From assembly GCA_001805445.1 (NCBI GenBank), contig MHGF01000003.1, positions 248,429-312,428 of the forward strand: 64,000 nucleotides of DNA. The letters run 5' to 3'. The stretch is from Omnitrophica WOR_2 bacterium GWF2_43_52 (GTDB taxonomy: Bacteria; Omnitrophota; Gorgyraeia; Gygaellales; UBA12090). The notes beneath the pieces were generated by a model. It was not told the DNA's origin and did not search any database. It worked only from the letters and a program-made list of their open reading frames with translations. The translations under genes and the position numbers were made by a program. This document shows positions 32,561 through 59,414 of the stretch, one piece after another (position 1 is the stretch's first letter; the number at the start of each line of letters is the position of its first letter).

Positions 32561-32562
32561 CG

Positions 32563-33558: not shown

Positions 33559-33586
33559 TCTAACGCCTGCTTATGAGCCTTGCCTA

Positions 33587-36619: not shown

Positions 36620-36660
36620 TTTTCAACCTCTGCTAACGAGCTGAAAATTGACAGCCTATA

Positions 36661-43912: not shown

Positions 43913-44335
43913 ATGTTTACCTATAGAAGAAAAATCAGGGTTCAGGATACGGATGCCGCGGGAGTCATTTTCTTCCCTAATCAATTCTGCTTCTATCAAG
44001 AGGCATTTGAGGCGTTTCTTGAAAGCATAGGCTATGATTTAGCAGCAGTGGTTCGAAAAAGCAACCATCATTTGCCGGTTGTTCATGCCGAAGCTGATTA
44101 TAGGGCTCCCTTACGCTTAGGAGATTCTATTGATATTCAACTTAAGGTTATGCATGTAGGGCACTCTTCCCTTAGCTTTCAGGCTGATATTCTTAAACAA
44201 GGTAAAATCCGCGCCGGATGCGTAAAAGTAGTCCACGTGTCTGTTGACGCCCACACCCGCAAGAAAACCCCCCTTCCCGCAAGCCTGCGTAAAAAAATGG
44301 CGCAACTGCATAAGAAAAATCACATATCCCTATAA
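43913..44335 (+). CDS. hotdog-fold acyl-CoA thioesterase (possible DHNA-CoA thioesterase of the menaquinone pathway)
   Basis: YbgC/4HBT-like N-terminus (RVQDTDAAGVIFFPNQF). Located beside menE/menC/menA. Confidence 0.65.
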   Translation: MFTYRRKIRVQDTDAAGVIFFPNQFCFYQEAFEAFLESIGYDLAAVVRKSNHHLPVVHAEADYRAPLRLGDSIDIQLKVMHVGHSSLSFQADILKQGKIRAGCVKVVHVSVDAHTRKKTPLPASLRKKMAQLHKKNHISL

Positions 44336-44555: not shown

Positions 44556-45974
44556 TCAGAAGGCGCGGCGGTTTGATTTTATGCCGCTCGAGAGTACTTG
44601 ATTCGGCCAGAGATAAAAGGCATCGGGAATCTTAAATTTAGGCAAGTATTTACTTAAGTGTTTTACCAGCGCCACTCGGTTTAGGCGCTTATTCTTTTTT
44701 AGCTTTAGAAACGCGACCGGACGGAATCCGTATTCTTGATGGGGAGCTGCCACAACATAAGCATCTTCAACGAACGCGCACGTGCGCAAGAAATATTCTA
44801 TCTCTTCGGGAAAAATGTTTTCCCCCCCTGAGATAAGCATCGTGTCTTTACGCCCTTTAATAGTAAGAAATTTCCCCTTTTCAAGAATCCCGCTATCCCC
44901 AGTATGAAACCAGCCATCTCTATCGGTAGCCGGCTTCAACACGCCGTTTTTAATATATCCTTGAAAAAGCGTCTTACCGGCTACCAGAATTTCGCCGTCT
45001 TTAGCTATACGCACTTTGCGATATCGCAGCATTTTTGCTTTTAAAGAAGCACTTTTATGATTGAGCGCGCCGGTTGTTGCTACTTGAGAAGCCAGTTCCG
45101 TAAGTCCGTATGATACATACAGAGGAAAATTTTTCCTGCGCGCCTCTGCTATAAGCTGTTCTGGTATAGCGCTTCCTCCTACGAGAAGCGCTTTCAATTT
45201 CTTAAGTACACTGCAACCCCCTTTTGCTGCCACTATTCTCTGTAACTGCGCGGCTACAAAAGAAACATGAGTAATACTATGCTGATTAATGGCTGAGCAA
45301 ACATCCTTATTTTTAGAAATAACCACTGCCGCGCCTTTTAAAAAACAGCGAAACAGAATGCTCAGGCCCGACACATGATACAGCGGCAAAGACAAAAGCC
45401 AGCGATCAAAAGGCTCAACCGGGATATTTTTATTGGAGCCGAGCGCGCTGTAGTAATGATTCGCGAAAGTATGCTGTACTGCTTTAGGCAGGGTAGTGCT
45501 GCCTGAAGTAAAAAGTATTGTTGCCGGCTGAGTAAGCGCGTAGCAGGCATTTTTAGATGAAACGTACGGGGCGTTTTTTGTAACGATGTTTTCTAGAGAA
45601 ACGACAGCAATCGGTAAGCTTTTAAACTTTTTGGCTTCCGCGGTAAGAAGGACTTTCCCTCGAATATTCTTTATGTGCTGACTAAGCGCGTTCAGCGGAA
45701 GCCTTTCGCTTAAATGGCAGCTCACCGCTCCAATACGCCACAAGGCAAACAAAGCAATGACATACTCAGGGCTTGATGGAGCTACAATACAAACCCTTCC
45801 TTTCCCTTTTATGCCGATATCCTGAAGTTTTTTGGCACAGTAATCTATAGCATTGTCAAAGGCTTTATAGTTAAGCGTTTCCCTGCCGAAAATAATAGCG
45901 GGCCGCCCGCCATGTTTAAGAGCATTTATTTTTACCGGACACTGAATCTGCATAAGTACCTTACGGAGGCTCAC
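44556..45974 (-). CDS. menE: o-succinylbenzoate-CoA ligase
   Basis: AMP-binding motifs (LFTSGSTTLPKAV, GYGLTE) and men-cluster context. Confidence 0.75.
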   Translation of the reverse strand: MSLRKVLMQIQCPVKINALKHGGRPAIIFGRETLNYKAFDNAIDYCAKKLQDIGIKGKGRVCIVAPSSPEYVIALFALWRIGAVSCHLSERLPLNALSQHIKNIRGKVLLTAEAKKFKSLPIAVVSLENIVTKNAPYVSSKNACYALTQPATILFTSGSTTLPKAVQHTFANHYYSALGSNKNIPVEPFDRWLLSLPLYHVSGLSILFRCFLKGAAVVISKNKDVCSAINQHSITHVSFVAAQLQRIVAAKGGCSVLKKLKALLVGGSAIPEQLIAEARRKNFPLYVSYGLTELASQVATTGALNHKSASLKAKMLRYRKVRIAKDGEILVAGKTLFQGYIKNGVLKPATDRDGWFHTGDSGILEKGKFLTIKGRKDTMLISGGENIFPEEIEYFLRTCAFVEDAYVVAAPHQEYGFRPVAFLKLKKNKRLNRVALVKHLSKYLPKFKIPDAFYLWPNQVLSSGIKSNRRAF

Positions 45975-46042: not shown

Positions 46043-47125
46043 TTATACCTGGTTTAAACTTTCAAAACGGATATCACCTTCGCTTAATGGCTTAAGGCGC
46101 GCCGTCATTTTTCCTTCTTGAGCCACACAAGGCTCTTTCAATAAATCTTTCTCAAAATATTTTAAGGTATCAATCCCCGCCCGGCAATTGCCGCCAATCG
46201 CAGCGGTAAGATGAATAAGGGAAAATAGCCCGATGCCGGATTCAAATAAAGAGCTCACTACAATTTGTATGCCGCTTTTCTTAGCCTCATCTGCCATCGC
46301 AAGCGTCTTTCTTATGCCTCCTAGGAGTGTAGGTTTTAATACCCAGGCCTTTACCCCTTCACGTATTTTGACTACCTTGTCTCCTTCTGAAAGAAGAGAT
46401 TCATCTAAGGCGACAGTAATGCCTGTTTTATGAAAAAATTCAGGTATCTTTTCTACCTCTTTAAAAGGCTCTTCTATGTATTCAATCTGCTTTGGTTCAA
46501 TCGCGCTTGCAAAATACAGGGCATCATCATAACTCCACCTTTGATTCACATCCAAATGTATACGCGCACGATTATTCACCAGCGCCAAAACCTCATTGAC
46601 GCGGGTTATATCTTCTTTCACCTTGCCGCCTGCCTTCACTTTTATTGATTGAAATCCCTTCAAAAGCAAATCGTTAACCGCCTCTTTAAGAGGCTCTTCT
46701 TCCTGAAGCAGCCCGTTAACCATAATGGCAGAGCTTGGAGATGTAGCCCAAAGATACGACAGGGGCTTTTGCAGCTTAAGCGCTATCGCGTTATAGACAA
46801 CTGCTTCCACGCCAAAACGAACTTCAGGAATAAGCTGGAATGAATCTATCATCTTAAACAACTCGTTAGACTCATCCGGCAGTTCTTGCAAGGTAAAACT
46901 TTTTTTAAATTCCTTAAGATTTTTGACATATGCTTCTATTTCTCTATCGTCAAATCCTTTAAGAGGAGCAATCTCGCCAAATCCCTGCCACTGGTTATCC
47001 AGCGTCAAAAAAAGTATAATCCCCTCACGTAAGCGTAATTGGTTTCTCCCATGAATTAAAACAGGAGATTTAAAAGGCAGGCTGTAGCGGTAAATCTTTA
47101 AGGAAGTGACTTTCACAGTATCCAA
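46043..47125 (-). CDS. menC: o-succinylbenzoate synthase (enolase superfamily)
   Basis: Mandelate racemase/muconate lactonizing enzyme-like layout with K-x-K and D/E/D metal ligands. Men-cluster context. Confidence 0.75.
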   Translation of the reverse strand: MDTVKVTSLKIYRYSLPFKSPVLIHGRNQLRLREGIILFLTLDNQWQGFGEIAPLKGFDDREIEAYVKNLKEFKKSFTLQELPDESNELFKMIDSFQLIPEVRFGVEAVVYNAIALKLQKPLSYLWATSPSSAIMVNGLLQEEEPLKEAVNDLLLKGFQSIKVKAGGKVKEDITRVNEVLALVNNRARIHLDVNQRWSYDDALYFASAIEPKQIEYIEEPFKEVEKIPEFFHKTGITVALDESLLSEGDKVVKIREGVKAWVLKPTLLGGIRKTLAMADEAKKSGIQIVVSSLFESGIGLFSLIHLTAAIGGNCRAGIDTLKYFEKDLLKEPCVAQEGKMTARLKPLSEGDIRFESLNQV

Positions 47126-47997
47126 CCCAGGGAAAAAAGAAGGCTGTAAATAACCAGGAGTTTTCCGGTAAAACTCAATACCTTGTTAAGCGAAGGGCCG
47201 TCAGTTTTGTTAAGGACAACCTGTATGCTGGGAATAGCAATAAAGGCGATTACAGAAGCCACTATTATTTTGGAATGTTCTTTGGTAAGAAGGTAAAGAT
47301 ATACGGGAATGCTTGAGGCAAAAAGAATTGAGGCTAGGTATTCGCTTTGCGCGAAGCGTTTGCCAAAGCGCACGGCTAAGGTGCGTTTTCCGGTTAACGC
47401 GTCTGTATGCATATCCCGGTAATTATTCACGCAAAGCATTGAAATTGAAAGCGCCCCAACCCCCAACCCTGCCAGGAATGCCGCACTACTCCAAGAAAAC
47501 GACTGCACATAATAAGTCCCGGCCACGGCAACCGGCCCAAAGAAAATAAAAACAAAGAATTCCCCCAGGCCGATATATCCAAGCGGTTTTGGGCCCGCGG
47601 TATACAATATCCCTGAGGCAATGGATAAAATGCCAATAATGATAATAGGCAAGCCGCCTCTAGCTACCAAATAAAGCGATACCACCACCGCCAACCCAAA
47701 GACAAAAATAAAGCCCCTCTTTACTGCTTCGGGGCTTAATAATCCTGACTGAGTTACCCGCGTCGGCCCGATACGCTCTACGGTATCGGCTCCTTTCTTA
47801 AAATCAAAATAGTCATTGGCAAGATTCGTCCCTATCTGAATCAAAAGCGCGCACACAAGGCAAAAGAACGCGCTTAAAAGATGGAATACTCCGTCCCCAT
47901 AGGCCATTGCCGCGCCTATGACAACCGGCGCCACAGCCGCAGGAAGCGTCTTTAGCCGGCAGGCCATCTGCCAGATTTTTATACCATTACTTTTCAC
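47113..47997 (-). CDS. menA: 1,4-dihydroxy-2-naphthoate octaprenyltransferase
   Basis: UbiA-family polytopic membrane protein with NDYFD motif (ANDYFDFKKGAD). Confidence 0.8.
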   Translation of the reverse strand: MKSNGIKIWQMACRLKTLPAAVAPVVIGAAMAYGDGVFHLLSAFFCLVCALLIQIGTNLANDYFDFKKGADTVERIGPTRVTQSGLLSPEAVKRGFIFVFGLAVVVSLYLVARGGLPIIIIGILSIASGILYTAGPKPLGYIGLGEFFVFIFFGPVAVAGTYYVQSFSWSSAAFLAGLGVGALSISMLCVNNYRDMHTDALTGKRTLAVRFGKRFAQSEYLASILFASSIPVYLYLLTKEHSKIIVASVIAFIAIPSIQVVLNKTDGPSLNKVLSFTGKLLVIYSLLFSLGWIL

Positions 47998-48011
47998 GTA
48001 CGATAACCGTA

Positions 48012-48263
48012 TTAGCGATATGCCTCTTTTCTGTGCTTAAGCCTATAGATAAAAACTTCTTTTGCCTTATCGTCTATGCGATAGAGCAGCCTATAGCTGC
48101 CAATCCTCACCCTATACCCATCTTCATTAGTGAGCTTAAGTGCCCCGTATGGCCGGGGATTATTGGCTAAACGCACAATTTCATCTTTTGCTGCATTAAA
48201 AATTTTCCCTTGCAGGCGATCAAGGTCTTTTTGAGCTTGCGGCAAAATCTTTATCCTATACAT
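48012..48263 (-). CDS. RelE/ParE-family type II toxin
   Basis: 83 aa with the RelE/StbE-like pattern (KILPQAQKDL ... YRLLYRIDD ... VFIYRLKHRKE). Confidence 0.8.
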   Translation of the reverse strand: MYRIKILPQAQKDLDRLQGKIFNAAKDEIVRLANNPRPYGALKLTNEDGYRVRIGSYRLLYRIDDKAKEVFIYRLKHRKEAYR

Positions 48264-48491
48264 TTAGCCTGATCTTTTTCTTAAATACTCTTCTAAGCTA
48301 ACGGCTTTTCCTTCTTCCGCGCGTAACTTCTTTAAATCCAACAAATCCTCATTCAACTCTTCACGGGCAATCTGTTCCTCTAAGGCCTTCTCGACAAAGA
48401 AACCCTGCTTTATCCCATGCTCCAGGCAGAATTTCTTTAGCCTGTTGACAAGTTTGGAATCAATCTTTACCGCATACGATACCTTGTTCAT
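48264..48491 (-). CDS. type II antitoxin (RelB/ParD-like) paired with the downstream toxin
   Basis: 75 aa, immediately upstream of the toxin and adjacent to it (stop at 48264, toxin start at 48263). Helical, acidic C-terminus. Confidence 0.6.
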   Translation of the reverse strand: MNKVSYAVKIDSKLVNRLKKFCLEHGIKQGFFVEKALEEQIAREELNEDLLDLKKLRAEEGKAVSLEEYLRKRSG

Positions 48492-48647
48492 TCCTTATCC
48501 ACCTCCAGATAAACTATATCATATAAAGTTTTATATTTCAAGAAAAAGTTTACTAAAGAAAACTTCTATCATTCCATAGAATCTGAATAATCGGCTTTGA
48601 ATAAGCCGATAGCCAATTTTGGGAAGAAATTATTTCTCAGGTTGTTT

Positions 48648-51600
48648 TTAACTTAGCGAATCAATGATGACCAGCGCCTCTTTTAGCTCGGGAGAGCTTT
48701 CTCGGGCGGCTTCTTCTTCCAGCTTCATAATATCCGCCAGGCAGACCAGCAAATCATCCGCCTGCTCATCCAATTCACCCTTCTGCGCGCAGGCGGCAAC
48801 CAGTTCTTTAACCCGACTTCCCGATGGAATAATGCCGGAGGCGGCCATATTCCTTATTTGGGCAAGCTCGGCTACGGTATCCATCCCCTCAAGCGCTGCC
48901 GCGCTTATCCGTGGCAGGTTAAAATCTAAACCCCGAAAACTTCCCATCGGCTGAATAGTCATAGGCAGAGCGCGGAAGTCAATACCGCCGGTTTTATCCG
49001 GAGCATTTTGCATTGAAGAACTAGCTGTTTCATAGGCAAATCCAAACTTTTCGGCAATACCTTGATCGATACTCCCTATTATCGTTGTCCCTAAACCTGT
49101 CCTCTTTAAAATATAAACATCCTCTCCCTTAAGATTTTTATTAGGTTCACTCTTAACCCAGTTAATTATTTCTGCAATTTTTGCGTCTGTCATCGTTTTC
49201 ATTTTCTCATAGACTGCGGCATACGCTTCTTTTAATGCTCGATAACTAGGCTCTTCCATATAATTTTCATCGTCTCTACCAGGCCCGGCAAGAAAATTAC
49301 GCTTTTCTACTAATTCTATCGTTTTCCTCTCTTCTTCTGTAAGTACTAGCCCATATAGGATCATCTGAAGCGTCTTTTTTAACAACTCTTCATTAAAAGG
49401 CCGCATTATCTCATATCTTGTTGTGTCGCCATAGTAATAATCTTCTACTCCACCTATCACAAGCATTCCTTCGCTAAAATTAACGGTAACTTCTGCCTCT
49501 CCGGGAGGAAGGCCTGGATCATAGTCATAGTCGAAAAATACAGAACCAACATCCGTGACAACTCCTGTTGATAAAGCTTCTTTCACCTTGTCCTTATCAA
49601 TATTTGGCTTAAATATGTTATAATTTTCCATTATCTTAGTTAATACCATAATTACAGCAGTATACGCCTCATCTGCCGATTTGGGAATATAAATATCCTT
49701 TTCACTATTCGTGTATTGTGAAAAAGACGAAATAGTTGGTTTATAGATAAATTCGAGTTTCTCAACAATGCCTCGATTAATAGTTCCGATTACCATTATT
49801 CCTGAGCCTGTTTCCTTAAGGATCCGGGCATCTTTTCCTTTAAAATATTTATTAGGCTCACTCTTAATCCAATTAATTATTTCAGTAATTTTAGCGTCTG
49901 CCAAAAGTCCGATTTCATTTTTTATTTTATAATAAGTGTCTCGCAATTTTTGCTCGGCCGCTTCCTCGGCTTCTGACGGCATACTATCGCTGCCATCACC
50001 AGCAAAAAGATTCTCTTCTTCTACAGCGTTAATCAACCATTTCTCATCTTCTGAAAGAGACATGTTATACCAACCTAAATCAAGAAAAATTTTACGAAGC
50101 TGACTTCTTAGCAGATTCTCATTTAAAGGCTTTATTACTTCATATGTTACGCTATCAATATTGTAGTAATATTTCTTGCTATCCAATACAATAACTCCTT
50201 CGCTAAAATTAACAATAACTTTGCTATCCCAAGTATAAAGAGACGTTTCAGAATCATAGTCTAAAAAGACATAACCAACATCCGTGGCAACTCTTGTTGA
50301 TAAAGCTTCACTCACCTTGTCCTTATCTATCACTGGCTTAAAGTTGTTGTATTTTCTCGTTATTTCGGTTAATACCATAATTACAGCAGCATATGCCTCA
50401 TCTGCCGATTTGGGAATATAAATATCCTTTTTACTATTGGAAAATTGAACCGAAGACGAAGCACTAAGGCGCAACTTGTTTATTATCTCCAGCATAGGAT
50501 TTATGTACGGAGTGTTTTTCTTTAAAAGTGCGTTGCCTTTTATTAGAGGTAGCAAGAGATCGCTACTAAATTCTACATCTTCTTTTTTCACTCCATCGCT
50601 GTATATTTCCGTAATACTTACATAATCTTTATTTTCAATATCTGACAATTTAACTGTTTGATAACCCCATACCTCGCCATGGCCCGGTGTTTTTTGCTGG
50701 TCCTCTATCCACTCTTTAAATTCCCGCTCGGTTTTGTTTTGACGTTCAGCATCAATCTCTTCCTTTATTCTTTTTACCTGATTCCATTCTTTCTCACTCA
50801 AGATATATGCGTATAAAGAACGAAATTCATTATTTGGGCCTTTATCATCGTCATTCTGAAACTGCCCTTCTTGGCCGATTAAAACTAATTTATTATCTAA
50901 TTTTTCCTCTATCGCATCCAAGCCCAATTCTTGAAGGATTTCCTCCTCTCCAGCTTCCTCATATGTCATACCGGAAACTACATGACCACCTAATATGGAA
51001 AATTTTTTTGACTCCGCTTTATTATGCACTCGTCTTTGCAGCAATAATTTCCCGTCTGGCGTAAAAACAAAGGCATTGGCAGTCCTATGTCTTAACCCAA
51101 ATATGTGCGTAAAACCAGCTTCGGTAACTCCTACGGCTTTATCATCCTCACCTACTATATCAGTTAACTCACCCTTAAATTTCTTGACAAACTTTGTGTC
51201 CTTAGCTTGTTTGCCTCTATCCTGCCTTATCCCTTCTATCACTTTATCAATAGTGATATATTGCTCTAAATTTACACCATTCGCAGTTAAAGAGCCTTTT
51301 AATTCTTGCAAGTGGTCCCTATAGAAATTCAAAATATCATTAAGCTCTACAGGTGTTACAGTTCCTATATTTTGAGATAACCATTTGGCTTGAGCAACGG
51401 CTTTCTCCAGATGTATCGCCGATGAGCCTATGAACTGCAATCTGACAGCACTTACATGCTGCAATGAAATAGACAACATAGGTTGGCGGCTTCCTCTTCC
51501 TTCTGGTTTACTCTCAAAAATCTTTTCTCCTCGCTTAATTTTAAAAATACCAAATAATGGCTCGTTATTCTGATATGCTGACTTAACCTTCTGAAAGGTA

Positions 51601-53924
51601 AACTCCTCAAGTTTTAAATCCTTTAACATCTGTACTTGTGCAGGTTTTAATTGTGCTGCTATTTTATCGCCTTTCTCGTTTAACTCTGCAAATTCAATCC
51701 ACCATTTTATGTCTTCATTGTTTTTATCTTCAGTCTCAGCAACAAAAGCAAGCATACAGAACATCTTCAGGATAAGATCAAGCTTCTCTTGAGGATTATT
51801 AATGCCTTTAATAATGCTCTCGGTAAAGGCTAAACCATAATCAAGAGCATCTAAATTCTCGCCTAATTGCTTTTTGAATACGGTTGCATCCTTTGAACCA
51901 AGGGCTTTATATAATTCAGATAACTTCCCGGATATTAACTGCACATCTCCATACCCAAGTCTAGAGAGCTTTCGCAATCTATAGAGTAAAAACTCAGCTT
52001 TTCTTTGTTGTAATGTCATAAGATTAGTATCTATGTAATATTCTGCTCTCTCGTTATCCATCATCCCGATCCCGTCACAAAAAGTAATAATGGCTAACGC
52101 CCCAAGCAGTTCATCCTTATTATCTTTTAATTCGTTCGGCAACTTATCTAGAAGCCTTAACAAGCGATGCGGGGTTCTTTCGCCGAAAAACATAGTGCCC
52201 ACCGCTACATGCTGGCCAATAAGCCATTTTACTTTTTCAATGAAAAGTATATCTTTTTGATAATAAACTGGCAGATTATTACCAATCCAAGCAGCCCCTT
52301 TATCTTCATGGCCTACAGTGCCATCATGAGTCCCAATATCATGCAACAAGACAGTTAAAAAGATTAATTCCTTATCTTTAGGATTAGAAAATAGGTTGCT
52401 GAATAATTGAATGTATTTATTTATAGCCACAGGGTCCATTAACCCATTTCTAGCTTTATTAATGCCAGCAACATTATTACTCCTAACCATCTCTATCGTC
52501 TCTATAACTTCAAGGGTGTGCTTAAACATATTACTATTCCATTTTTTAACACCCTCCAGCTTATCAAAATCAGGGAACACCTTTCCTATTGCGCTTATTC
52601 CAGCCTCGGATTTTTCAGCCATGCTCAAAATATCTGCATAAATATTTGTAGATATGCGCAAGGTATTTTGCAAATTTTGAAAATTCTTAATAGAGCTATC
52701 TGATTCTTTATCAGAATCTTCTATCGACGAAGACACTGCAACAGCTGGTTGCAGGCTTATATTCAGCAGATTGGTGGCAACGCCACTTATTTTTATGCCC
52801 GGCAATTTATCAAAAATATCATTGTCAAATATAGCGCCGTTTTCAGTATTAATCGCGCTACTAGCCCAGCTTATCCCGCCGCTTACATAAGCTCTACGCA
52901 CTACCTGGCCCGTAGGGGTGTAAACCTGCTCCTTGAGGTTGTATTCACCCTTAGAGAAGGATTGCTGGTATTGCTTGAAATACTCCGTCTTAGACCAGGG
53001 TTCTTGGGAAGTTAAATTGGTGAGATTTTGGGTATTGATAAGTGAGGCGTAGGCGCCGGGTTTGCCGCTGAAACGCGATTTAAACCATCTGGAGAGGATA
53101 AGAGAATAATAGACCTGCCTTAAAGAGGCGTATCTCTTGGCCGAGTTCACCTCTCTGGTAAGCTTGGGAATAATCAATTCCTTAATTAGCTGGGTTGAGT
53201 ATTCGTTAAGCTCTTTTAGCCTGAGGTCGGAAAAGCGGTAACCGCTTCCCACACCCCCGCGGTGTGGGTTCAACACCGCGGGGGTGTGCTCGGTTAGATA
53301 GTCTTCTTCCAGCATTACCTTTAGGACAGCCTTATACACATAGGCGCTGTCTTTAGACTCCCGGACGATTATCTCACCTGGCACTATCCAGGGACGGGTG
53401 AGGGTAGGAATACTTATATTCTCACTTCCATAAAGTTCTCCCGCCTTTTTATACAGCTTATCCCAATAGGCCTTGCCTTCAGAAGTTTGGGGAGAAGTAA
53501 AGCTGGCAGTGTCCTTCTTTAATTGCAGGTCTGCCTCAAGCATAATCCTGCCTACATCGGTCTTTTCTAAGTACGAGTCTATAATTTGGTCTTCCGAATC
53601 CGGTCTTAAGTTTACCCAGAACATATCATCCGGCAGGGCTACTCCCACAAGAAAATAGCTCAATAAATCCTTGGCTTCCTCTTTAGCCCTTGTATCTTCA
53701 AGATTAGCCAAATCCCCCCTATCCAAGAGTAGCTTAAAATGATCACTGGCAGTGTCATAGGAAAAATAACGCAGATGCACGGGGCGAAATTTATCCAGTA
53801 ACAAGCTCCCTGCGGCCTTTGATAAGTAATTTGCGACATTCAAATCAACTGCTACCTGGGCAAAGCTTGCTTGCTGAAACAGTAGGCCAATGCTTAAAAC
53901 CAGTGAAAGTATTTTGCGCGACAT
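48648..53924 (-). CDS. giant exported multidomain protein (1758 aa): signal peptide + HD phosphohydrolase domain + NUDIX hydrolase domain + two tandem ~243-aa modules of unknown function
   Basis: N-terminal Sec signal MSRKILSLVLSIGLLFQQASFA-QV. HD motif H...LLHDIGTHDG...H...D (DNA ~52000-52500). NUDIX box GGHVVSGMTYEEAGEEEILQELG preceded by RTANAFVF...GKLLLQRR (DNA ~50700-51080). Tandem duplicated modules each start ...S.KDIYIPKSADEAY(A/T)AVIMVLT. GGAGG RBS 7 nt upstream of the ATG. Confidence 0.7.
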   Translation of the reverse strand: MSRKILSLVLSIGLLFQQASFAQVAVDLNVANYLSKAAGSLLLDKFRPVHLRYFSYDTASDHFKLLLDRGDLANLEDTRAKEEAKDLLSYFLVGVALPDDMFWVNLRPDSEDQIIDSYLEKTDVGRIMLEADLQLKKDTASFTSPQTSEGKAYWDKLYKKAGELYGSENISIPTLTRPWIVPGEIIVRESKDSAYVYKAVLKVMLEEDYLTEHTPAVLNPHRGGVGSGYRFSDLRLKELNEYSTQLIKELIIPKLTREVNSAKRYASLRQVYYSLILSRWFKSRFSGKPGAYASLINTQNLTNLTSQEPWSKTEYFKQYQQSFSKGEYNLKEQVYTPTGQVVRRAYVSGGISWASSAINTENGAIFDNDIFDKLPGIKISGVATNLLNISLQPAVAVSSSIEDSDKESDSSIKNFQNLQNTLRISTNIYADILSMAEKSEAGISAIGKVFPDFDKLEGVKKWNSNMFKHTLEVIETIEMVRSNNVAGINKARNGLMDPVAINKYIQLFSNLFSNPKDKELIFLTVLLHDIGTHDGTVGHEDKGAAWIGNNLPVYYQKDILFIEKVKWLIGQHVAVGTMFFGERTPHRLLRLLDKLPNELKDNKDELLGALAIITFCDGIGMMDNERAEYYIDTNLMTLQQRKAEFLLYRLRKLSRLGYGDVQLISGKLSELYKALGSKDATVFKKQLGENLDALDYGLAFTESIIKGINNPQEKLDLILKMFCMLAFVAETEDKNNEDIKWWIEFAELNEKGDKIAAQLKPAQVQMLKDLKLEEFTFQKVKSAYQNNEPLFGIFKIKRGEKIFESKPEGRGSRQPMLSISLQHVSAVRLQFIGSSAIHLEKAVAQAKWLSQNIGTVTPVELNDILNFYRDHLQELKGSLTANGVNLEQYITIDKVIEGIRQDRGKQAKDTKFVKKFKGELTDIVGEDDKAVGVTEAGFTHIFGLRHRTANAFVFTPDGKLLLQRRVHNKAESKKFSILGGHVVSGMTYEEAGEEEILQELGLDAIEEKLDNKLVLIGQEGQFQNDDDKGPNNEFRSLYAYILSEKEWNQVKRIKEEIDAERQNKTEREFKEWIEDQQKTPGHGEVWGYQTVKLSDIENKDYVSITEIYSDGVKKEDVEFSSDLLLPLIKGNALLKKNTPYINPMLEIINKLRLSASSSVQFSNSKKDIYIPKSADEAYAAVIMVLTEITRKYNNFKPVIDKDKVSEALSTRVATDVGYVFLDYDSETSLYTWDSKVIVNFSEGVIVLDSKKYYYNIDSVTYEVIKPLNENLLRSQLRKIFLDLGWYNMSLSEDEKWLINAVEEENLFAGDGSDSMPSEAEEAAEQKLRDTYYKIKNEIGLLADAKITEIINWIKSEPNKYFKGKDARILKETGSGIMVIGTINRGIVEKLEFIYKPTISSFSQYTNSEKDIYIPKSADEAYTAVIMVLTKIMENYNIFKPNIDKDKVKEALSTGVVTDVGSVFFDYDYDPGLPPGEAEVTVNFSEGMLVIGGVEDYYYGDTTRYEIMRPFNEELLKKTLQMILYGLVLTEEERKTIELVEKRNFLAGPGRDDENYMEEPSYRALKEAYAAVYEKMKTMTDAKIAEIINWVKSEPNKNLKGEDVYILKRTGLGTTIIGSIDQGIAEKFGFAYETASSSMQNAPDKTGGIDFRALPMTIQPMGSFRGLDFNLPRISAAALEGMDTVAELAQIRNMAASGIIPSGSRVKELVAACAQKGELDEQADDLLVCLADIMKLEEEAARESSPELKEALVIIDSLS
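49000..50470 (-). repeat. in-frame tandem duplication (two ~728-bp units plus a partial third start) inside the giant gene
   Basis: A 35-nt identical stretch, gcctcatctgccgatttgggaatataaatatcctt, starts at 49667 and at 50395 (728 bp apart). Flanking protein sequence is ~60% identical over ~243 aa between the two units. Confidence 0.8.
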
Positions 53925-54056
53925 AATTCGCCTCCTTACTATTGTCTGACATTAAACTATAATAGTGTCAGAGATTTCATCTCCCATTTACTTTTTTCAT
54001 TAATAAGCTGTTTATTAAAGTATTAACTAGTTATCACTGAAAAAGCGTCTTTTAAA

Positions 54057-54135
54057 CACGAATTCCCACGAATTACACACTAATCATCACGAATACAACG
54101 ACGAAGTAATTCGTGTGTATTTGTGTCTATTCGTG
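54057..54135. promoter_or_regulatory. helically phased array of five CACGAAT heptamers (three direct, two inverted) upstream of the giant gene
   Basis: CACGAATT at 54057 and 54067, CACGAATA at 54088, inverted AATTCGTG at 54108 and TATTCGTG at 54128. Spacing 10, 21, 20, 20 bp. Lies in an AT-rich 420-bp intergenic region. Confidence 0.5.
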
Positions 54136-54343
54136 CAAAATAAAGGTTTTTCAGCGGTAACTAATTACCTATAAAATAAAAAAACCGGAATGCCGACCCT
54201 ATTATATTTTCGTGGCAATCCGGTATATATAACCGTATTGGGCGTTTCGCACCTCCATGCGAAAACGCTTTCTTATTTTAAATTCTATTTAAAGTTTACC
54301 ATAAAAGTGCATAATGTCAAGTTTTTTATGATTAATCAAACCC

Positions 54344-54574
54344 CTATAAATTATTAAGCATGGATATATATTCCTCTTTGCTTATTCCTAATACACGCAG
54401 ATTATTCAAAATGATAAAAACTGGAATATCCTTAATGGCTGGGATAACTATGGGCCGCTTTAGATTTGCCTTACGGTAGATTCGGTGATCCCCTTTCTGC
54501 CTGACAAATTCACAACCGATATACCTTAAGAACTTATCAAATCTTCTGTAGTCTACAGGATTTAAGCGGGACAC
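54344..54574 (-). CDS. hicA: HicA-like toxin (YcfA family mRNA interferase), probable GTG start
   Basis: FDKFLRYIGCEFVRQKGDHRIYRK ... PIVIPAIKDIPVFIILNNLRVLGI matches the HicA pattern (GFxxxRQKGSHxxxxxP ... G). The 105-aa ORF is too long for HicA. A GTG at 54574 gives 77 aa. Confidence 0.55.
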   Translation of the reverse strand: MSRLNPVDYRRFDKFLRYIGCEFVRQKGDHRIYRKANLKRPIVIPAIKDIPVFIILNNLRVLGISKEEYISMLNNL

Positions 54575-54864
54575 GGCAGTCGTACTTCTTCCTGGGTTTG
54601 CCCTATATATACGGGCGGTAACCACATTTTCTGCGGATGGCCTACTTTCTTCCAACCACACTCAAGAAGAACATCCTCAATGGTTCCCATCTTGTCGGTT
54701 TCTTCAAGAAAAAGCTGAAGCGCATCCTCAAACCTTCCTTTAGCCTGTTCCTGAGTATCTCCACAAGTGGAAAGGTCCAATGCAGGACTATAAGCAATAA
54801 ACTTTTCACCTTCTCTATAAAACACTACATTTAAGCTGACCTTCTGGAATTTTAACTTTGCCAT
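54562..54864 (-). CDS. hicB: HicB-like antitoxin (UPF0150 N-terminal domain only)
   Basis: KFQKVSLNVVFYREGEKFIAYSPALDLSTCGDTQEQAKGRFEDALQLFLEE matches the HicB N-domain. It overlaps the downstream hicA-like start. Confidence 0.55.
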   Translation of the reverse strand: MAKLKFQKVSLNVVFYREGEKFIAYSPALDLSTCGDTQEQAKGRFEDALQLFLEETDKMGTIEDVLLECGWKKVGHPQKMWLPPVYIGQTQEEVRLPCPA

Positions 54865-54925
54865 CTTTTCTCCCTTCATAAATAAGGATACCATATTCGC
54901 ATTAAAAAATCAATATTTTGGAATA

Positions 54926-55753
54926 TCATGGCCGTTTGGGGAAGCGGGAGAAGTCGGGTTTTCTTTTTGCTACAAAGGCGTTGCGGCCTTCCTGGCCTTC
55001 TTCGGTCATATAAAAAAGCATAGTGGCATTGCCGGCTAATTCCTGCAGGCCTGCCTGGCCGTCGCAGTCCGCGTTTAAGGCTGATTTAAGGCAGCGAATA
55101 GCGATTGGTGAATTCGCCAGGATTTCCCGGCACCACTTAATGGTTTCTTTTTCCAAATCCTTTAAGGCTACAACCTTATTCACTAACCCCATGGTGAGGG
55201 CTTCCTTAGCGTTATACTGGCGGCATAAAAACCAGATTTCCCGCGCCTTCTTCTGGCCCACCACCCGCGCCAAATAAGAGGCGCCATAGCCGCCGTCAAA
55301 TGAGCCTACCTTTGGCCCGGTTTGGCCGAAGATAGCGTTGTCCGCGGCAATAGTAATGTCCGCCATAAGGGCTAAAATATTCCCCCCGCCAATCGCATAA
55401 CCTGCAACCATGGCAATTATCGGTTTTGGGCAAGTCCTCATCTGGCGCTGGAAATCAAGCACATTCAACCGCTCAACGCCTTTTCCATCCTTATAGCCGG
55501 CATCTCCTCGTATCTTCTGATCACCGCCTGAACAAAAGGCGCGGCTGCCTTTACCGGTGAGAATTATTACCCCGATTTTCTCATCATTACGCGCATCGTC
55601 TAATGCTTTGGACATCTCAATCACGGTAAGAGGGCGAAAGGCATTATGCACCTGGGGGCGATTTATGGTTATTTTGGCGATTTCCTCTGACTTTGCATAT
55701 TCTATATCGGTAAACTGAAGCATTTTTGTCCATTTAGCTCTTTGCTTCTTCAT
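54926..55753 (-). CDS. menB: 1,4-dihydroxy-2-naphthoyl-CoA synthase
   Basis: Crotonase-fold MenB similarity (FCSGGDQK ... GYAIGGG), 275 aa. Confidence 0.9.
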
Positions 55754-55788: not shown

Positions 55789-57552
55789 CTACCTTTTAAG
55801 ACAAATTCGGATCGTATTTTGTAGAGAACATATCGCCTTGTAATTTTCCTCGCGATTAGCTTCTATTTCAATAATGGTTGCTCCATTCTTCCCTAAGGCC
55901 TGGCGGTAAGCATCAGTGAATTCCTTTACTACCTTTACCTTGACATAGCCTATCTGAAACATCTTTGCTGCCATCTCAAAACTAAAGGTATGTGCCGCGG
56001 CAAAATATTTCTCAAAGACATTCGGGAATCCGGAAATCGGTAAAAATGAGAAAATCCCGCCTCCGCGGTCATTGATTACGATAATGACAAACGGAGTTTT
56101 CAATTCCTTTAGAAGCGCCAGAGAATTAAGATCGTGGAGAAACGCCAAATCCCCAAGAAGCGCCACTACCGGTTTAGCTAAGCCGTCAGCAAACCCTATT
56201 GCCGAAGCAAGGTTACCGTCAATACCGCTTGCCCCCCGGTTAGCTCCCACACAGCACAAATTCTTATTCACCCCGGCAAACATGTCCATAATCCGAATAG
56301 GCATACTATTAGCCAAAAAGAGCCCTGTTTCCTGAAAGGGTATCTGGCTTATAGCCTGCGCCAAGGCATCAGGAGTAAGCGCTGTTGTTTCTTTCACCCG
56401 CGCGAAAAGGCGTTGAGAAACGCGTTCTGATGCCTTTTGTAACCGCGCGGTAAAATCATTTCTCTTGCGCTGTTTCAAAAACTGCTTGATAGCCCCGCAA
56501 AAATAGGAAACTGAACATTCAACTCGCGTTGTCAGGCAATGTAAAGGGTCATTACGCAAGGGATGATTGAGCACGGTAATATAAGGAAGAGGAGTAATCT
56601 TTTTAATAAACTCATACCAGCGGCTTGAGGTTAATCGTCCTCCCAGATGCAGAACGCCATCAGGTCTATAGCGAGTTACTAAGGCAGGCTCAAGCAGGAG
56701 CTGGTCAAAATAATGAATGATTGAGGCATCTTTACTCTTCAGGCGTAATCCAGAAGTTATGTCAGCAAAAACCGGCCATTGCAGGGTGCGCGCAAGGGCC
56801 AGGACACTCTTTTCCTCTCCACTCTTTAATTTCCCCACGGCGATAATTCCCCGTTTCATCGCGCTAAGCTCTTGAGCGACATTCTTAAGCTCCTTTAATG
56901 ACAACCTTTTCTCATAAGGCTTATAACGCGTAAAGGGGAGGGAATTTTTTAGCCAATGGCTAAGGGACTTTACGTTCCCGGGAGTGAATCCTTTTTCCTT
57001 TATCGGGGTAAGAGGCTCGCGGAACATACAATTAATATGCACAGGGCCGGGATAATTGGCGCGCGCCCGATATACCGCTTGATCAATCGTAGTTAACACC
57101 GCCTCCAAAGGCATCTCTTTTGATGGGCAAGGCATATCAAAGAAAAAACGCGCGTAATCGCCAAAAATCTTCACCTGGTCAATGGTTTGGTTGGCGCCGG
57201 TATTACGCAGTTCAGGGGGGCGGTCAGCCGTCAGGATAATCAAGGGAAGCTTTTTCTTAGATGCCTCAATAATCGCCGGGTAAAAATTGGCAACCGCTGT
57301 GCCTGAGGTCGCGATAAGACAGGCAGTTTTGCCGCTTGAGGCAACATAACCTAAGGCATAATAGGCTAAGCCCCGCTCATCAAAATGGATACAGCTTTTG
57401 GCGCGCTTATTCTCGGCAACCGCGACTACCAGCGGCCCTGAACGCGAACCGGGAGCAATACAAAAATACTCAACCCCGCAGCGCGTTAGCTCCTCAATAA
57501 TAAGCCTTCCCCAGAGATGGTTTATATTTTTTGCTTTAGAAAAACTAACCAT
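55789..57552 (-). CDS. menD: 2-succinyl-5-enolpyruvyl-6-hydroxy-3-cyclohexene-1-carboxylate synthase
   Basis: TPP-enzyme layout (GSRSGPL ... GDLAFLHDLN). Start placed at Met37 (MVSFSK) to avoid overlapping menF. Confidence 0.8.
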   Translation of the reverse strand: MVSFSKAKNINHLWGRLIIEELTRCGVEYFCIAPGSRSGPLVVAVAENKRAKSCIHFDERGLAYYALGYVASSGKTACLIATSGTAVANFYPAIIEASKKKLPLIILTADRPPELRNTGANQTIDQVKIFGDYARFFFDMPCPSKEMPLEAVLTTIDQAVYRARANYPGPVHINCMFREPLTPIKEKGFTPGNVKSLSHWLKNSLPFTRYKPYEKRLSLKELKNVAQELSAMKRGIIAVGKLKSGEEKSVLALARTLQWPVFADITSGLRLKSKDASIIHYFDQLLLEPALVTRYRPDGVLHLGGRLTSSRWYEFIKKITPLPYITVLNHPLRNDPLHCLTTRVECSVSYFCGAIKQFLKQRKRNDFTARLQKASERVSQRLFARVKETTALTPDALAQAISQIPFQETGLFLANSMPIRIMDMFAGVNKNLCCVGANRGASGIDGNLASAIGFADGLAKPVVALLGDLAFLHDLNSLALLKELKTPFVIIVINDRGGGIFSFLPISGFPNVFEKYFAAAHTFSFEMAAKMFQIGYVKVKVVKEFTDAYRQALGKNGATIIEIEANREENYKAICSLQNTIRICLKR

Positions 57553-57562
57553 ATATTTTCCC

Positions 57563-58954
57563 TTACGATGAAAGGATTCGGAGGAAAATGCGCTTTTTCT
57601 CTTCAATTTCCTGCCATTCCTCATCCGCGGTTGAGCCTTCCACAATACCGGCACCGGCAAATAAATTCACTGTATTTGCCCGCATCAACGCGCAGCGCAG
57701 GGCAACCGTAAAATCAACACTGGTAGTACCGATATATCCGAAAGCTCCCGCGTACCATCCCCGGTCAAAAGGCTCTACATTGATCAGTGCCTGGAGTACT
57801 TGCTCTGTCGGAGTTCCTCCTACCGCGGGTGTTGGATGAAGCAGAGAGAGAATCTGGGCATCGTCTGTTTCATCTTTCAGGATTCCTTTAAAACGGGTAA
57901 TTAAATGCTGGCCGCTTGAAGCCTTAACTACTGTTGGGGCGTCATCGCTGCTAAAGGAAACGCATAATTTTTGAAAAGCATTTTTAATTGCCTCTGCTAC
58001 AATTTTATGTTCCAAGGCGTCTTTATCAGAAGAAAGCAGTTTTTTCTCAAATGCGGCATCTTCTTCTCCCGAGGCTCCCCGAGGCATTGTCCCTGCAAGG
58101 GCCTCGCTTTCAATCGCGCGGCCGTGACGCGTAAATAAGCGTTCCGGAGATGCTCCAAAAAAGGCATTCCCTGCTTGAGGCTGAAAGTAATAATGAAAGG
58201 AACGGGGCGTTTCTCGCACAAGCTTTCTGAATACAACCAGCGGCTCACTATCAGCAGTAAGCTCTATACATGTTTTGCGCGCTAATACAATCTTCTGATA
58301 CGCCATTTTACCAGATGGCTGAACATGCTCACTGAATAATTGCCGCCACAGGGCCTTATCAGGGAGCATGCGCACGCCCCGTATCGCGGGAATAACCTCA
58401 TTGCCTGATGGTTTTTGCGCAAACGAAAGATTATCAAGCGCGCTCAGATATTCCTCGATTAATGCGCGCGTAACATTCGCAGCTACAATATTACAGGCAA
58501 AAACCGTCTTTTCGTTTTTTGTTATGATTTCAAACTGGGGCAGTAAAAAATAATACGCGCCAAACTCTTTCCATTCTTTTTCCTGTTTTCTTGCGCCACT
58601 ATTCACCCGAGGAGGATAAAAACCTATTCCTCCATAGTAATGCGGCTCATTCCCTGCCAAAGAGAGCTTTTCATGAATAGCTTCGAAAAGTGTATTGTAG
58701 CCAGAGATTGCCTGGCTTCGGATACTATCCGCGGCGCCAAGGCCTGCCATTTCAAAGGTGTTATCCCTGTTAGACCAATATACTTTATACTGGCTTCCTT
58801 GAGCCATAAGCCAGTCAAGGCAGTTAATCCCAGGACAAGGCACTTCAAGGCGAATAATTCCATGAGTATGGATAGGCTGGCCTTCCGAAAGAAGGCTGCG
58901 AATATTGCGCGCTATGCGATCCTTAAAAACCTGGAACAAAATATCGGAAGAATC
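57563..58954 (-). CDS. menF: isochorismate synthase
   Basis: Chorismate-binding C-terminal motifs (PTPAVGG ... GWYAGAFGY ... RCA). Start placed at an internal Met (MDSSDIL) downstream of the STAS gene stop. Confidence 0.7.
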   Translation of the reverse strand, partial: DSSDILFQVFKDRIARNIRSLLSEGQPIHTHGIIRLEVPCPGINCLDWLMAQGSQYKVYWSNRDNTFEMAGLGAADSIRSQAISGYNTLFEAIHEKLSLAGNEPHYYGGIGFYPPRVNSGARKQEKEWKEFGAYYFLLPQFEIITKNEKTVFACNIVAANVTRALIEEYLSALDNLSFAQKPSGNEVIPAIRGVRMLPDKALWRQLFSEHVQPSGKMAYQKIVLARKTCIELTADSEPLVVFRKLVRETPRSFHYYFQPQAGNAFFGASPERLFTRHGRAIESEALAGTMPRGASGEEDAAFEKKLLSSDKDALEHKIVAEAIKNAFQKLCVSFSSDDAPTVVKASSGQHLITRFKGILKDETDDAQILSLLHPTPAVGGTPTEQVLQALINVEPFDRGWYAGAFGYIGTTSVDFTVALRCALMRANTVNLFAGAGIVEGSTADEEWQEIEEKKRIFLRILSS

Positions 58955-59003
58955 CATAGTATCATTTGTATGCTTGAAACATAGAGCATCAGGAAAACTG
59001 AAC

Positions 59004-59414
59004 TTATATTTTTTTATTTTTACCGGCTTCCCGATAACGCTTCTCTTCCTTAACCTGGTTCTGAATGATTCCAAAGTAACGGTCAGCATCTTCTCTGTTT
59101 TCAAATATCTGCACATCAGGCAGGGCGTTAACAATTTTAAACACCTTATCAATATGTTCGGGGACACTCGACATCATCATAACCACGCCTTGAGCTTTAG
59201 CCGCTTTACGGATTTCCAGGATCGCGCTAATTCCCATACTGCTTATATAATCCAAGCGCTCAAGGTCAAGCACTATGGCTTTTAACGTCGTACTTAACTG
59301 CGCCTGCGCCTTTTTTCTGAATTCCTCGTACGTCTGAGTATCCAATGAACCGCTCAAAGATATAATCACCACATTCTCTTCTTCCTTCTTTGCTATACTT
59401 ATTTTCAATCCCAT
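59004..59414 (-). CDS. STAS domain anti-sigma factor antagonist (SpoIIAA/RsbV-like)
   Basis: 136 aa STAS fold pattern with the conserved phospho-serine context (DLERLDYISSMGISAI). Confidence 0.8.
   Translation of the reverse strand: MGLKISIAKKEEENVVIISLSGSLDTQTYEEFRKKAQAQLSTTLKAIVLDLERLDYISSMGISAILEIRKAAKAQGVVMMMSSVPEHIDKVFKIVNALPDVQIFENREDADRYFGIIQNQVKEEKRYREAGKNKKI

Follow-up and report, generated by a model that had tools for sequence, protein, structure and literature searches.

The menaquinone biosynthesis (men) genes in a 64,000-nt stretch of DNA from Omnitrophica WOR_2 bacterium GWF2_43_52 (GCA_001805445.1, contig MHGF01000003.1, positions 248,429 to 312,428; hereafter called the window) are interrupted by a segment of five genes, the largest of which encodes a protein of 1758 amino acids (aa). 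This giant gene belongs to a family of modular proteins, very large and specific to Omnitrophota, that consist of a signal peptide, a constant N-terminal module (N-module), a variable cargo, and a constant C-terminal module (C-module). The segment that carries it is a real, lineage-specific insertion. In the reading that we prefer, to which we assign a probability of roughly 0.55, the insert is made up of three separate units (a HicB-like/HicA pair, the one large gene, and a RelB/ParE pair), and the large gene encodes an exported modular enzyme carrier.

Omnitrophota are abundant, uncultured, ultra-small bacteria that are thought to live on other cells, and the occurrence of glycolytic and nucleotide enzymes behind signal peptides in their large proteins is a standing puzzle. 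The family described here offers a compact form of such proteins, with lengths of 1-3 thousand amino acids (kaa), thousands of members, and two constant modules that neither Pfam nor NCBIfam models cover. Whereas giants of 30-150 kaa are out of reach, proteins of 0.5-2 kaa are amenable to expression, localisation and structure determination. Our interest lies more in the family that was exposed than in the single locus.

A modular protein family specific to Omnitrophota

The giant gene is divided as follows, with the residue numbers of its product given for each part.

48648-53924, minus strand: 1758-aa gene for the candidate N/C-bracketed Omnitrophota enzyme-carrier protein, an uninterrupted open reading frame (ORF) of 5,277 nt
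53856-53924, minus strand: signal peptide by inspection, residues 1-23, MSRKILSLVLSIGLLFQQASFA followed by Q
52845-53855, minus strand: conserved N-module, residues ~24-360
52005-52589, minus strand: HD phosphohydrolase-like cargo domain, residues ~446-640
50793-51092, minus strand: NUDIX-fold cargo domain (IDI/YfcD-like), residues 945-1044, Pfam NUDIX 1.1e-6
49758-50492, minus strand: ~245-aa module copy 1, residues 1145-1389, by self-match
49038-49757, minus strand: ~245-aa module copy 2, residues 1390-1629, by self-match; DNA repeat families D1 and D2
48651-49037, minus strand: conserved C-module, residues 1630-1758, GGIDFRALP... followed by a helical bundle at the extreme C-terminus

A homologue search with the giant protein returned at least 855 proteins, and all source names among the matches listed are Omnitrophota or Omnitrophica. 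The homologues align to only the first ~20-25% of the protein, at 55-72% identity. When coverage was mapped, residues 1 to ~360 were represented in 119/119 homologues and residues ~1630-1758 in 112/119, with almost nothing between, and the C-module always occupied the extreme C-terminus. An exhaustive HMMER search with the N-module alone against 1.84 billion cluster representatives yielded 7,467 clusters at E ≤ 1e-3 (5,684 at E ≤ 1e-30), in which the match always starts at residue ~24-30. Lengths among the best 150 of these N-module proteins range from 410 to 6,439 aa. The family N-module, which begins right after the signal peptide, carries the motifs FWVNLRPD ... RPWIVP ... GEYN ... SGG, and the C-module starts with GGIDFR and ends at the C-terminus; both sets of features are present in the giant protein, which is the only family member in the window. 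Recombination handles were sought in the DNA of its N- and C-modules and rejected, since identity to the members of other organisms is only ~68% and exact matches extend over no more than 24-29 nt.

The cargo that relatives carry between these modules, as identified with Pfam, includes many enzymes of glycolysis and sugar metabolism: phosphoglycerate kinase (PGK), enolase, triose-phosphate isomerase (TIM), glyceraldehyde-3-phosphate dehydrogenase, phosphoglucomutase (PGM), cupin-type glucose-6-phosphate isomerase (GPI), fructose-bisphosphate (FBP) aldolase/phosphatase, phosphoenolpyruvate synthase/pyruvate phosphate dikinase (PPDK), and transaldolase/transketolase. Further cargo comprises adenylate and guanylate kinases, NUDIX, HD, DnaJ, TPR and HEAT domains, and others. 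Some members have no cargo at all. The 537-aa protein P0172 consists of a signal peptide, the N-module, a disordered linker of ~65 aa and the C-module, and the 609-aa protein P0161 is similar. Because such cargo-less members exist naturally, the N- and C-modules are the core of the family. The initial annotation of this DNA did not recognise an exported protein with HD and NUDIX domains as any described system; a unique combination is not supported, and this view gives way to membership in a family of 7,467 clusters in which cytoplasmic-type enzymes are routinely found behind the same signal peptide and N-module. The same observation carries a warning for annotation: where metabolic reconstructions of Omnitrophota list a PGK, enolase or NUDIX protein, the gene may in fact encode an exported fusion.

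Signal peptide and predicted export

The Sec signal peptide proposed for the giant protein in the initial annotation is supported by inspection, which reveals classic n-, h- and c-regions (MSRK / ILSLVLSIGLLF / QQASFA, with Q following the predicted cleavage site), and by hydropathy. The pattern is that expected for Sec signal peptidase I, with a positive n-region, an h-region of ~12-13 residues that lies within the usual 7-15, and small residues at positions -3 and -1. Hydropathy identifies the signal peptide as the only strongly hydrophobic segment of the protein, with no further transmembrane (TM) helix. Since these signal-peptide rules are followed and other hydrophobic segments are absent, the protein is predicted to cross the inner membrane, to be cleaved after SFA, and to be released as a soluble periplasmic or surface protein. 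Signals of the autotransporter, type IX secretion or sortase type (a C-terminal beta-barrel, a beta-sandwich C-terminal domain, or LPXTG/PEP-CTERM) had no Pfam matches in the protein, and the C-module is modelled as a soluble four-helix bundle.

The same arrangement is found throughout the family, for which the N-terminal consensus is (K/R)KI(L/I)SLVLSFGLLFQQxxFAQ-(V/I)AAELN. Signal-peptide-like n- and h-regions occur in 192/198 members with complete N-termini and a c-region of the FAQ type in 188/198, and another strongly hydrophobic 19-mer was found in only 17/198 of these complete members.

Cargo of the giant protein

The HD phosphohydrolase domain named in the initial annotation stands in part. 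The residues H468, H528-D529, H571 and D617, which reproduce the H...HD...H...D metal-binding pattern of HD phosphohydrolases (PF01966), are invariant in an alignment with P0007, P0008 and P0121, and all three of these homologues match Pfam HD above threshold (best 3.2e-8). The giant protein itself scores only 14.8 bits against a gathering cut-off of 22. There are weak Protein Data Bank (PDB) matches to HD proteins, and the region fits no specific subfamily, because matches to GlnD-type, Ppx/GppA domain III and Cas10 HD domains are all weak.

For the NUDIX domain, the earlier call holds at the level of the fold. Residues 945-1044 match Pfam PF00293 at 1.1e-6 (29.1 bits against a gathering score of 21.1), a PDB sequence match is to DR0079 (0.0026), and HRT-N and GGH motifs align with isopentenyl-diphosphate isomerase (IDI) and YfcD, which together suggest the IDI/YfcD/DR0079 branch of the superfamily. 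NCBIfam models for isopentenyl-diphosphate (IPP) isomerase (2.9e-4; 20.5 bits against a cut-off of 127) and YfcD (5e-4) are matched far below their cut-offs. The Nudix box, GGHVVSGMTYEEAGEEEILQELGL, departs from the canonical GX5EX7REUXEEXGU at three places, where M stands instead of the first Glu, EE instead of RE, and QE instead of EE, and the three other NUDIX cargo domains of the family are equally non-canonical. Of the residues expected for a type 1 isopentenyl-diphosphate isomerase (Cys67 and Glu116 in Escherichia coli numbering), Cys67 is replaced by Gly, and the equivalog score is likewise not reached. Hydrolase or isomerase activity is thus uncertain, because the box is degenerate and the catalytic Cys of IDI is a Gly. 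The suggestion that the protein is a nucleotide-degrading effector is correspondingly not assured.

A pair of duplicated modules, given earlier as ~243 aa each, is confirmed as two copies of ~245 aa. Residues 1145-1401 match residues 1390-1638 with 49.8% identity (E 8e-64). This module has no PDB sequence relative. It occurs as a single copy directly before the C-module in P0003, P0004, P0005, P0006 and P0009 and in the middle of P0010, and it is single-copy in members that carry guanylate kinase. A search with the cargo alone recovered only the giant protein itself, and when the pieces are taken separately, the HD part has its best relatives in P0007/P0008 and the NUDIX part in P0002 (59-68%; residues 809-1158 at 59%). 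Because each piece has its best relatives in different members, cargo modules are shuffled within the family.

A lineage-specific insertion in the men operon

Every gene of the men/insert region is on the minus strand. The men genes were identified by NCBIfam equivalog models above the curated cut-off in each case:

57563-59167, minus strand: menF
55789-57660, minus strand: menD
54926-55753, minus strand: menB
47113-47997, minus strand: menA
46043-47125, minus strand: menC
44556-45974, minus strand: menE

The split between menB and menA recognised in the initial annotation is thereby confirmed. The 6.9-kb segment (47998-54925) parts menF-menD-menB from menA-menC-menE, and its five genes are arranged, from the menB side to the menA side, as HicB-like, HicA, the 1758-aa ORF, RelB-like, and ParE/RelE. 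Menaquinone genes have been reported in some Velamenicoccia by Seymour et al. (PMC10066038).

A scan for MenA over 185,579 species genomes provided 80 related men loci for comparison. The three closest relatives (L001-L003) are Omnitrophota metagenome-assembled genomes with MenA 77-82% identical, and in all three the order is menF-menD-menB-menA-menC-menE, with a menB-menA gap of ~20-35 bp and no segment. Direct adjacency of menB and menA, ~10-100 bp apart, was also seen in most of the 80 loci. Because the two genes are directly adjacent in the three closest relatives and in most of the 80 loci, the segment is an insertion, and a synteny comparison proposed with the initial annotation is answered accordingly; relative to these close relatives, the segment is a presence/absence polymorphism. 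An alignment of the junctions places the start of the insert directly after the menB stop codon and its end 14 nt before the menA start, with no target-site duplication. No flanking direct, inverted or terminal repeats, integrase, transposase, nearby tRNA, or Rfam element was found with the insert.

The spacers of the men operon are recurrent insertion sites, because other Omnitrophota (L010, L032, L005 and L012) carry different inserts in them. Unrelated inserts of 3.4 kb and 2.8 kb lie between menB and menA at L010:4965-8335 and L032:5558-8372. At L005:3111-9151, a 6-kb insert between menD and menB contains three paralogous genes for ~645-aa proteins, which by eye have hydrophobic, signal-peptide-like N-termini. 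Distant relatives of the N-module (33-35% identity) reside within or beside the men cluster at L012:1561-7098, L012:12106-16380 and L009:10723-12564; one of those in L012 is located between menC and menE. The L012 members adjoin small toxin-antitoxin (TA)-like genes, which from reading of their sequences are labelled as follows: one member has a DUF1778/GNAT-like pair on its upstream side, and the other has a RelE/YafQ-like ORF on its downstream side.

Base composition

The segment had been described as AT-richer by eye than its flanks, and a sliding-window calculation agrees, with a GC content of 0.34-0.39 over 49000-52500 compared with ~0.45 in the flanks. Within the giant gene, the GC content at third codon positions (GC3) is 0.506 in the N-module and 0.508 in the C-module but 0.31-0.34 in the cargo, set against a background of 0.477 ± 0.027 (minimum 0.425) for 28 ORFs. 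The AT-rich island thus corresponds mostly to the cargo of a single gene, with AT-rich spacers in addition. A set of 52 complete family genes from metagenomes (L085-L163) exhibits the same mosaic, with mean GC3 values of 0.484, 0.372 and 0.476 for N-module, cargo and C-module, respectively, and low cargo GC is therefore a signature of the family. Low GC was also considered as evidence of recent foreign origin, and was rejected on finding AT-rich cargo between GC-normal ends across these 52 genes. Possible causes of the mosaic are stronger constraint or gene conversion among paralogues acting on the constant ends, or relaxed cargo drifting toward AT.

Structure predictions for the constant modules

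Neither constant module has a match in Pfam, NCBIfam, PHROGs or PDB sequences. AlphaFold models were computed for the N-module alone and for the cargo-less protein P0172, the latter with a paired alignment of 46 sequences. In both models the N-module is a confidently predicted mixed alpha/beta domain (core predicted local distance difference test (pLDDT) scores of 85-95; predicted template modelling score (pTM) of 0.70). The model of P0172 also has the disordered linker and a C-module of four helices with a pLDDT of ~90, and it places a short strand at the invariant GGIDF motif. A Foldseek search of the PDB with the N-module produced nothing below E 0.49, and fold matches to the C-module were limited to generic or designed helical bundles; a word-indexed homologue search with the C-module alone recovered four fragments only. 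By the Pfam, NCBIfam, PHROGs, PDB-sequence and Foldseek tests, the modelled N-module would represent an unrecognised fold, and the pTM of 0.70 and the short GGIDF strand in the P0172 model give a hint of possible packing between the N- and C-modules.

A perfect 16-nt, GC-rich palindrome with a 7-nt loop (CACACCCCCGCGGTGT / ACACCGCGGGGGTGTG, 53250-53288) is located in frame inside the giant ORF. It sits in a variable loop of the N-module (residues ~212-225) that is modelled with low confidence. At this loop and at one other, odd and unrelated inserts are found in further members of the family, for example MDEGRGTKDEGRGMKDEGRSTTPS and LRGASQSRITKQSQNQIASLPAVARND, and these inserts look like in-frame translations of small palindromic repeat elements.

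Relation to known systems

The closest parallels are the very large multi-enzyme proteins reported for Omnitrophota. West-Roberts et al. (bioRxiv 10.1101/2023.11.21.568195) describe 'Archaeovorins' as Omnitrophota proteins of at least 30,000 aa that contain HEAT and TPR repeats, glycosyltransferases, TIM, GPI, FBPase, PGM/PMM, FBP aldolase, PPDK, and a region structurally like IPP isomerase; the enzymes are predicted to be extracellular. A 2026 preprint (10.64898/2026.06.07.730766) describes 'multi-enzyme metabolic cluster' giants of at least 10 kaa with NUDIX and HD content, most of which have a signal peptide and/or TM helices. The present family shares with the giants their restriction to Omnitrophota, a signal peptide, a predicted extracytoplasmic location, and a family-wide cargo repertoire of PGM/PMM, TIM, GPI, FBP aldolase/phosphatase, PPDK, HEAT, TPR, NUDIX, HD and an IDI-like fold. 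The giant protein thus conforms to the Archaeovorin type in being an Omnitrophota protein of a family whose metabolic-enzyme, HEAT and TPR cargo is predicted to be extracytoplasmic, although its own cargo is HD and NUDIX rather than glycolytic.

The differences are equally clear. The giants reach at least 10,000-30,000 aa, usually contain many TM helices and C39/S8 peptidase or SecA-like parts, and neighbour a locus resembling type II secretion systems or type IV pili (T2SS/T4P-like). The protein in the window has 1,758 aa and is predicted to be soluble, which places it outside the length and TM range of the giants, and no T2SS/T4P-like neighbours occur in the family loci examined. The accessible literature, including the passages searched and read in West-Roberts et al. 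and the 2026 preprint, yielded no account of 0.5-6 kaa proteins with this N-module and GGIDFR C-module. The family is apparently a smaller and as yet unnamed form of the multi-enzyme proteins with signal peptides that are known from Omnitrophota, and the giant protein is most likely an exported enzyme carrier related to the Archaeovorin type.

A constant terminal module on diverse exported enzymes also recalls the enzymes of cellulosomes, and by this analogy the modules might help to dock or assemble a set of enzymes extracellularly. In contrast to cellulosomes, there are two constant modules, one at each end, and the enzymes are those of central or nucleotide metabolism rather than carbohydrate-active enzymes. 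Pfam detects no dockerin or cohesin domain in the giant protein.

Proposed function of the carrier

If the large gene encodes an exported modular enzyme carrier, its N- and C-modules might provide what all members have in common, for instance a means of being retained, assembled or docked on the envelope or surface. This proposal is the more tentative part of our reading, and it is made because both modules occur in members that lack cargo and because their conservation far exceeds that of any cargo. The cargo would then have an extracytoplasmic role and act on small phosphorylated molecules, nucleotides among them. In the protein from the window, the HD domain, with its intact metal-binding motif, could be a phosphohydrolase that handles nucleotides or related compounds, and the IDI/YfcD-like NUDIX-fold domain may bind rather than hydrolyse its ligand. 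Extracytoplasmic cargo of this kind would fit the host-dependent or predatory lifestyle that has been proposed for Omnitrophota.

Several points weigh against the exported-carrier reading. Glycolytic and nucleotide enzymes need phosphorylated substrates and cofactors, and their export is biochemically odd. West-Roberts et al. (10.1101/2023.11.21.568195) caution that their own predicted localisation may be wrong. The N-module has no fold match (Foldseek E ≥ 0.49), which leaves a docking or assembly role as conjecture. Finally, the sub-threshold HD score and the degenerate Nudix box mean that, as judged from the sequence, neither catalytic activity is assured.

A broader and more speculative form of the proposal, which we regard as possible rather than probable, is that the N- and C-modules constitute a dedicated Omnitrophota system that exports swappable cytoplasmic-type enzymes (glycolytic enzymes, nucleotide kinases, HD and NUDIX domains) and assembles them in an enlarged periplasm or a surface coat. 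The result would be an external metabolic layer that processes the metabolites of a host or prey. Members would acquire new cargo by an exchange of cassettes between their conserved ends, and the gene in the window would be one that handles nucleotides and that came to lie, along with two TA pairs, in a men operon.

An unlikely alternative keeps the enzymes inside the cell. If the N-terminal helix escapes cleavage, or does not act as a Sec signal at all, the N- and C-modules could assemble enzymes into a membrane-tethered or scaffolded intracellular metabolon. The cargo overwhelmingly consists of cytoplasmic-type enzymes that use ATP, NAD and sugar phosphates, and the conservation of the N-terminal sequence exceeds what is usual in a plain signal peptide. 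Lower glycolysis, which the 2026 preprint (10.64898/2026.06.07.730766) reports as universal in 176 complete Omnitrophota genomes, may partly reside in such fusions, and the possible packing of N- against C-module in the P0172 model would also suit a scaffold. However, the n-, h- and c-regions have the proportions of a signal peptide, no second hydrophobic segment is present, and the positive-inside rule would place the bulk of the protein outside even if it remained uncleaved. In addition, DeepTMHMM calls signal peptides on related giants, as stated in that preprint.

Equally doubtful is a delivery role, in which the N-module, as a device for membrane interaction or translocation, would bring enzyme cargo into or onto an attacked cell. 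Omnitrophota have been proposed to be predators or epibionts (PMC10066038; PMC12583861), and a variable cargo behind a constant, delivery-type module is reminiscent of polymorphic toxins. Set against this are a cargo that is metabolic rather than toxic, the existence of cargo-less members, fold matches at chance level, and the lack of an immunity gene or dedicated secretion neighbour.

Toxin-antitoxin pairs and the defence-island reading

The four small genes of the insert form a TA pair at each end, in agreement with the initial annotation; the toxins are supported by Pfam, and the HicB-like partner by a PHROG match of 0.0024 only.

48012-48263, minus strand: ParE/RelE-family type II toxin, 83 aa, Pfam ParE_toxin 3.4e-13
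48264-48491, minus strand: RelB-like ribbon-helix-helix (RHH) antitoxin, 75 aa, NCBIfam antitoxin_RelB_like 6.5e-5, below the curated cut-off
54344-54574, minus strand: HicA-family toxin, 76 aa, Pfam HicA_toxin 4.1e-9, PHROG toxin 1.1e-6
54562-54894, minus strand: HicB-like putative antitoxin, 110 aa, PHROG HicB-like 0.0024 only

The first pair has the composition of RelBE/ParDE systems, in which a ParE/RelE-fold toxin is accompanied by an adjacent upstream RHH antitoxin. The toxin also matches NCBIfam RelE_StbE just below cut-off (1.9e-5), and the RelB-like ORF, which lies directly upstream and abuts the toxin start, has weak matches to Pfam RHH_3 and RepB. The second pair resembles HicAB systems by virtue of its HicA toxin domain. 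The mechanical HicA ORF extends to 54661, and the NCBI record calls a 76-aa gene, whose start is overlapped by the HicB-like ORF by 13 nt. The latter has no Pfam or NCBIfam match, and it differs from HicAB systems in that the HicB-like gene is located upstream of HicA and has a marginal profile match. In both cases, small toxins with matching Pfam families have an adjacent or overlapping partner gene; the HicB-like/HicA genes are a predicted pair.

The genomic context of the family was evaluated in 79 metagenome loci with flanks of up to 10 kb. Family genes are scattered among housekeeping genes (GroEL/ES, GuaA, inosine monophosphate dehydrogenase, GlmS, gyrase, pyruvate:ferredoxin oxidoreductase subunits, and tRNA synthetases), and no neighbour family recurs in more than 7/79 loci. 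In a few of the loci, family genes occur in tandem. No homologue of the TA genes from the window was found in these loci, nor was any conserved TA, defence or secretion neighbour, and the search for homologues with conserved TA neighbours that the initial annotation proposed thus has a negative outcome in these loci. PADLOC reported nothing meaningful for the five proteins of the insert. Because TA homologues and recurrent neighbours are absent from the 79 family loci and PADLOC is empty, the TA pairs are best read as selfish elements that share a permissive, variable spot with the large gene, and would not be its functional partners.

These results make it improbable that the segment is a defence or accessory island, as had been proposed in the initial annotation, with the HD and NUDIX protein acting as an anti-phage or signal-degrading effector tied to the flanking pairs. 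The TA pairs on both sides, the lower GC of an inserted segment, and the small TA-like genes beside distant family members in the Omnitrophota locus L012 would all be expected of such an island. HD and NUDIX domains occur in some defence systems. However, TA genes are the only genes of a mobile or defence island that are present, and the insert has no integrase or transposase, tRNA target, flanking or terminal repeat, or recognised defence gene. Low cargo GC3 is found family-wide, and a signal peptide on the giant protein and the mostly glycolytic cargo of its family likewise speak against a new defence-associated enzyme.

Integrity of the gene

Contigs from several sources (NCBI, ENA and JGI), 13 in all, encode the identical 1758-aa protein, for example in GCA_003499645.1. 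One of these loci (L083), on the 349-kb JGI contig Ga0208373_1000026, contains the identical giant gene together with RelB/ParE and menA-C-E, but matches the window only up to ~54176 (L083:2737). Upstream of that point, an FtsH gene replaces HicBA and menB. The breakpoint coincides with one further feature:

54181-54200, minus strand: terminator-like hairpin after HicA

Because the upstream context of L083 switches at this hairpin, the data suggest either that HicBA and the large gene can come apart as units or that the L083 assembly is chimeric. That the giant gene is itself an assembly chimera or a decaying, functionless mosaic, as its different upstream context in L083 and its strong compositional mosaic might imply, is very improbable given the uninterrupted ORF, intact N- and C-modules, identical proteins from several sources, and a mosaic that is family-wide.

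Other observations in the window

The mechanical ORF for menD (TTG start, 55789-57660) overlaps the end of menF (57563-59167) by ~100 nt, which makes it probable that menD really starts at a more downstream position. A menH gene was not seen in the men cluster. A YbgC-type thioesterase gene (43913-44335), which is located just after menE on the opposite strand, could encode the 1,4-dihydroxy-2-naphthoyl-CoA (DHNA-CoA) thioesterase of the menaquinone pathway. Further along are genes for a MotB/OmpA-like peptidoglycan-binding protein (41990-42667) and an adjoining class A beta-lactamase-like protein (42664-43602), the latter with a score well under NCBIfam cut-offs.

A complete operon of the Bat/MoxR aerotolerance type spans 28786-37653 and encodes a MoxR AAA ATPase, a DUF58 protein, a Rotamase_2 peptidyl-prolyl isomerase, an ORF with no Pfam match, a BatA-like VWA protein, a second VWA protein, a TPR protein, and BatD. 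Beside it are a glycogen-phosphorylase-like gene (37697-39727) and a family-9 heptosyltransferase gene (39821-40843), the second of which is consistent with an outer membrane that bears lipopolysaccharide.

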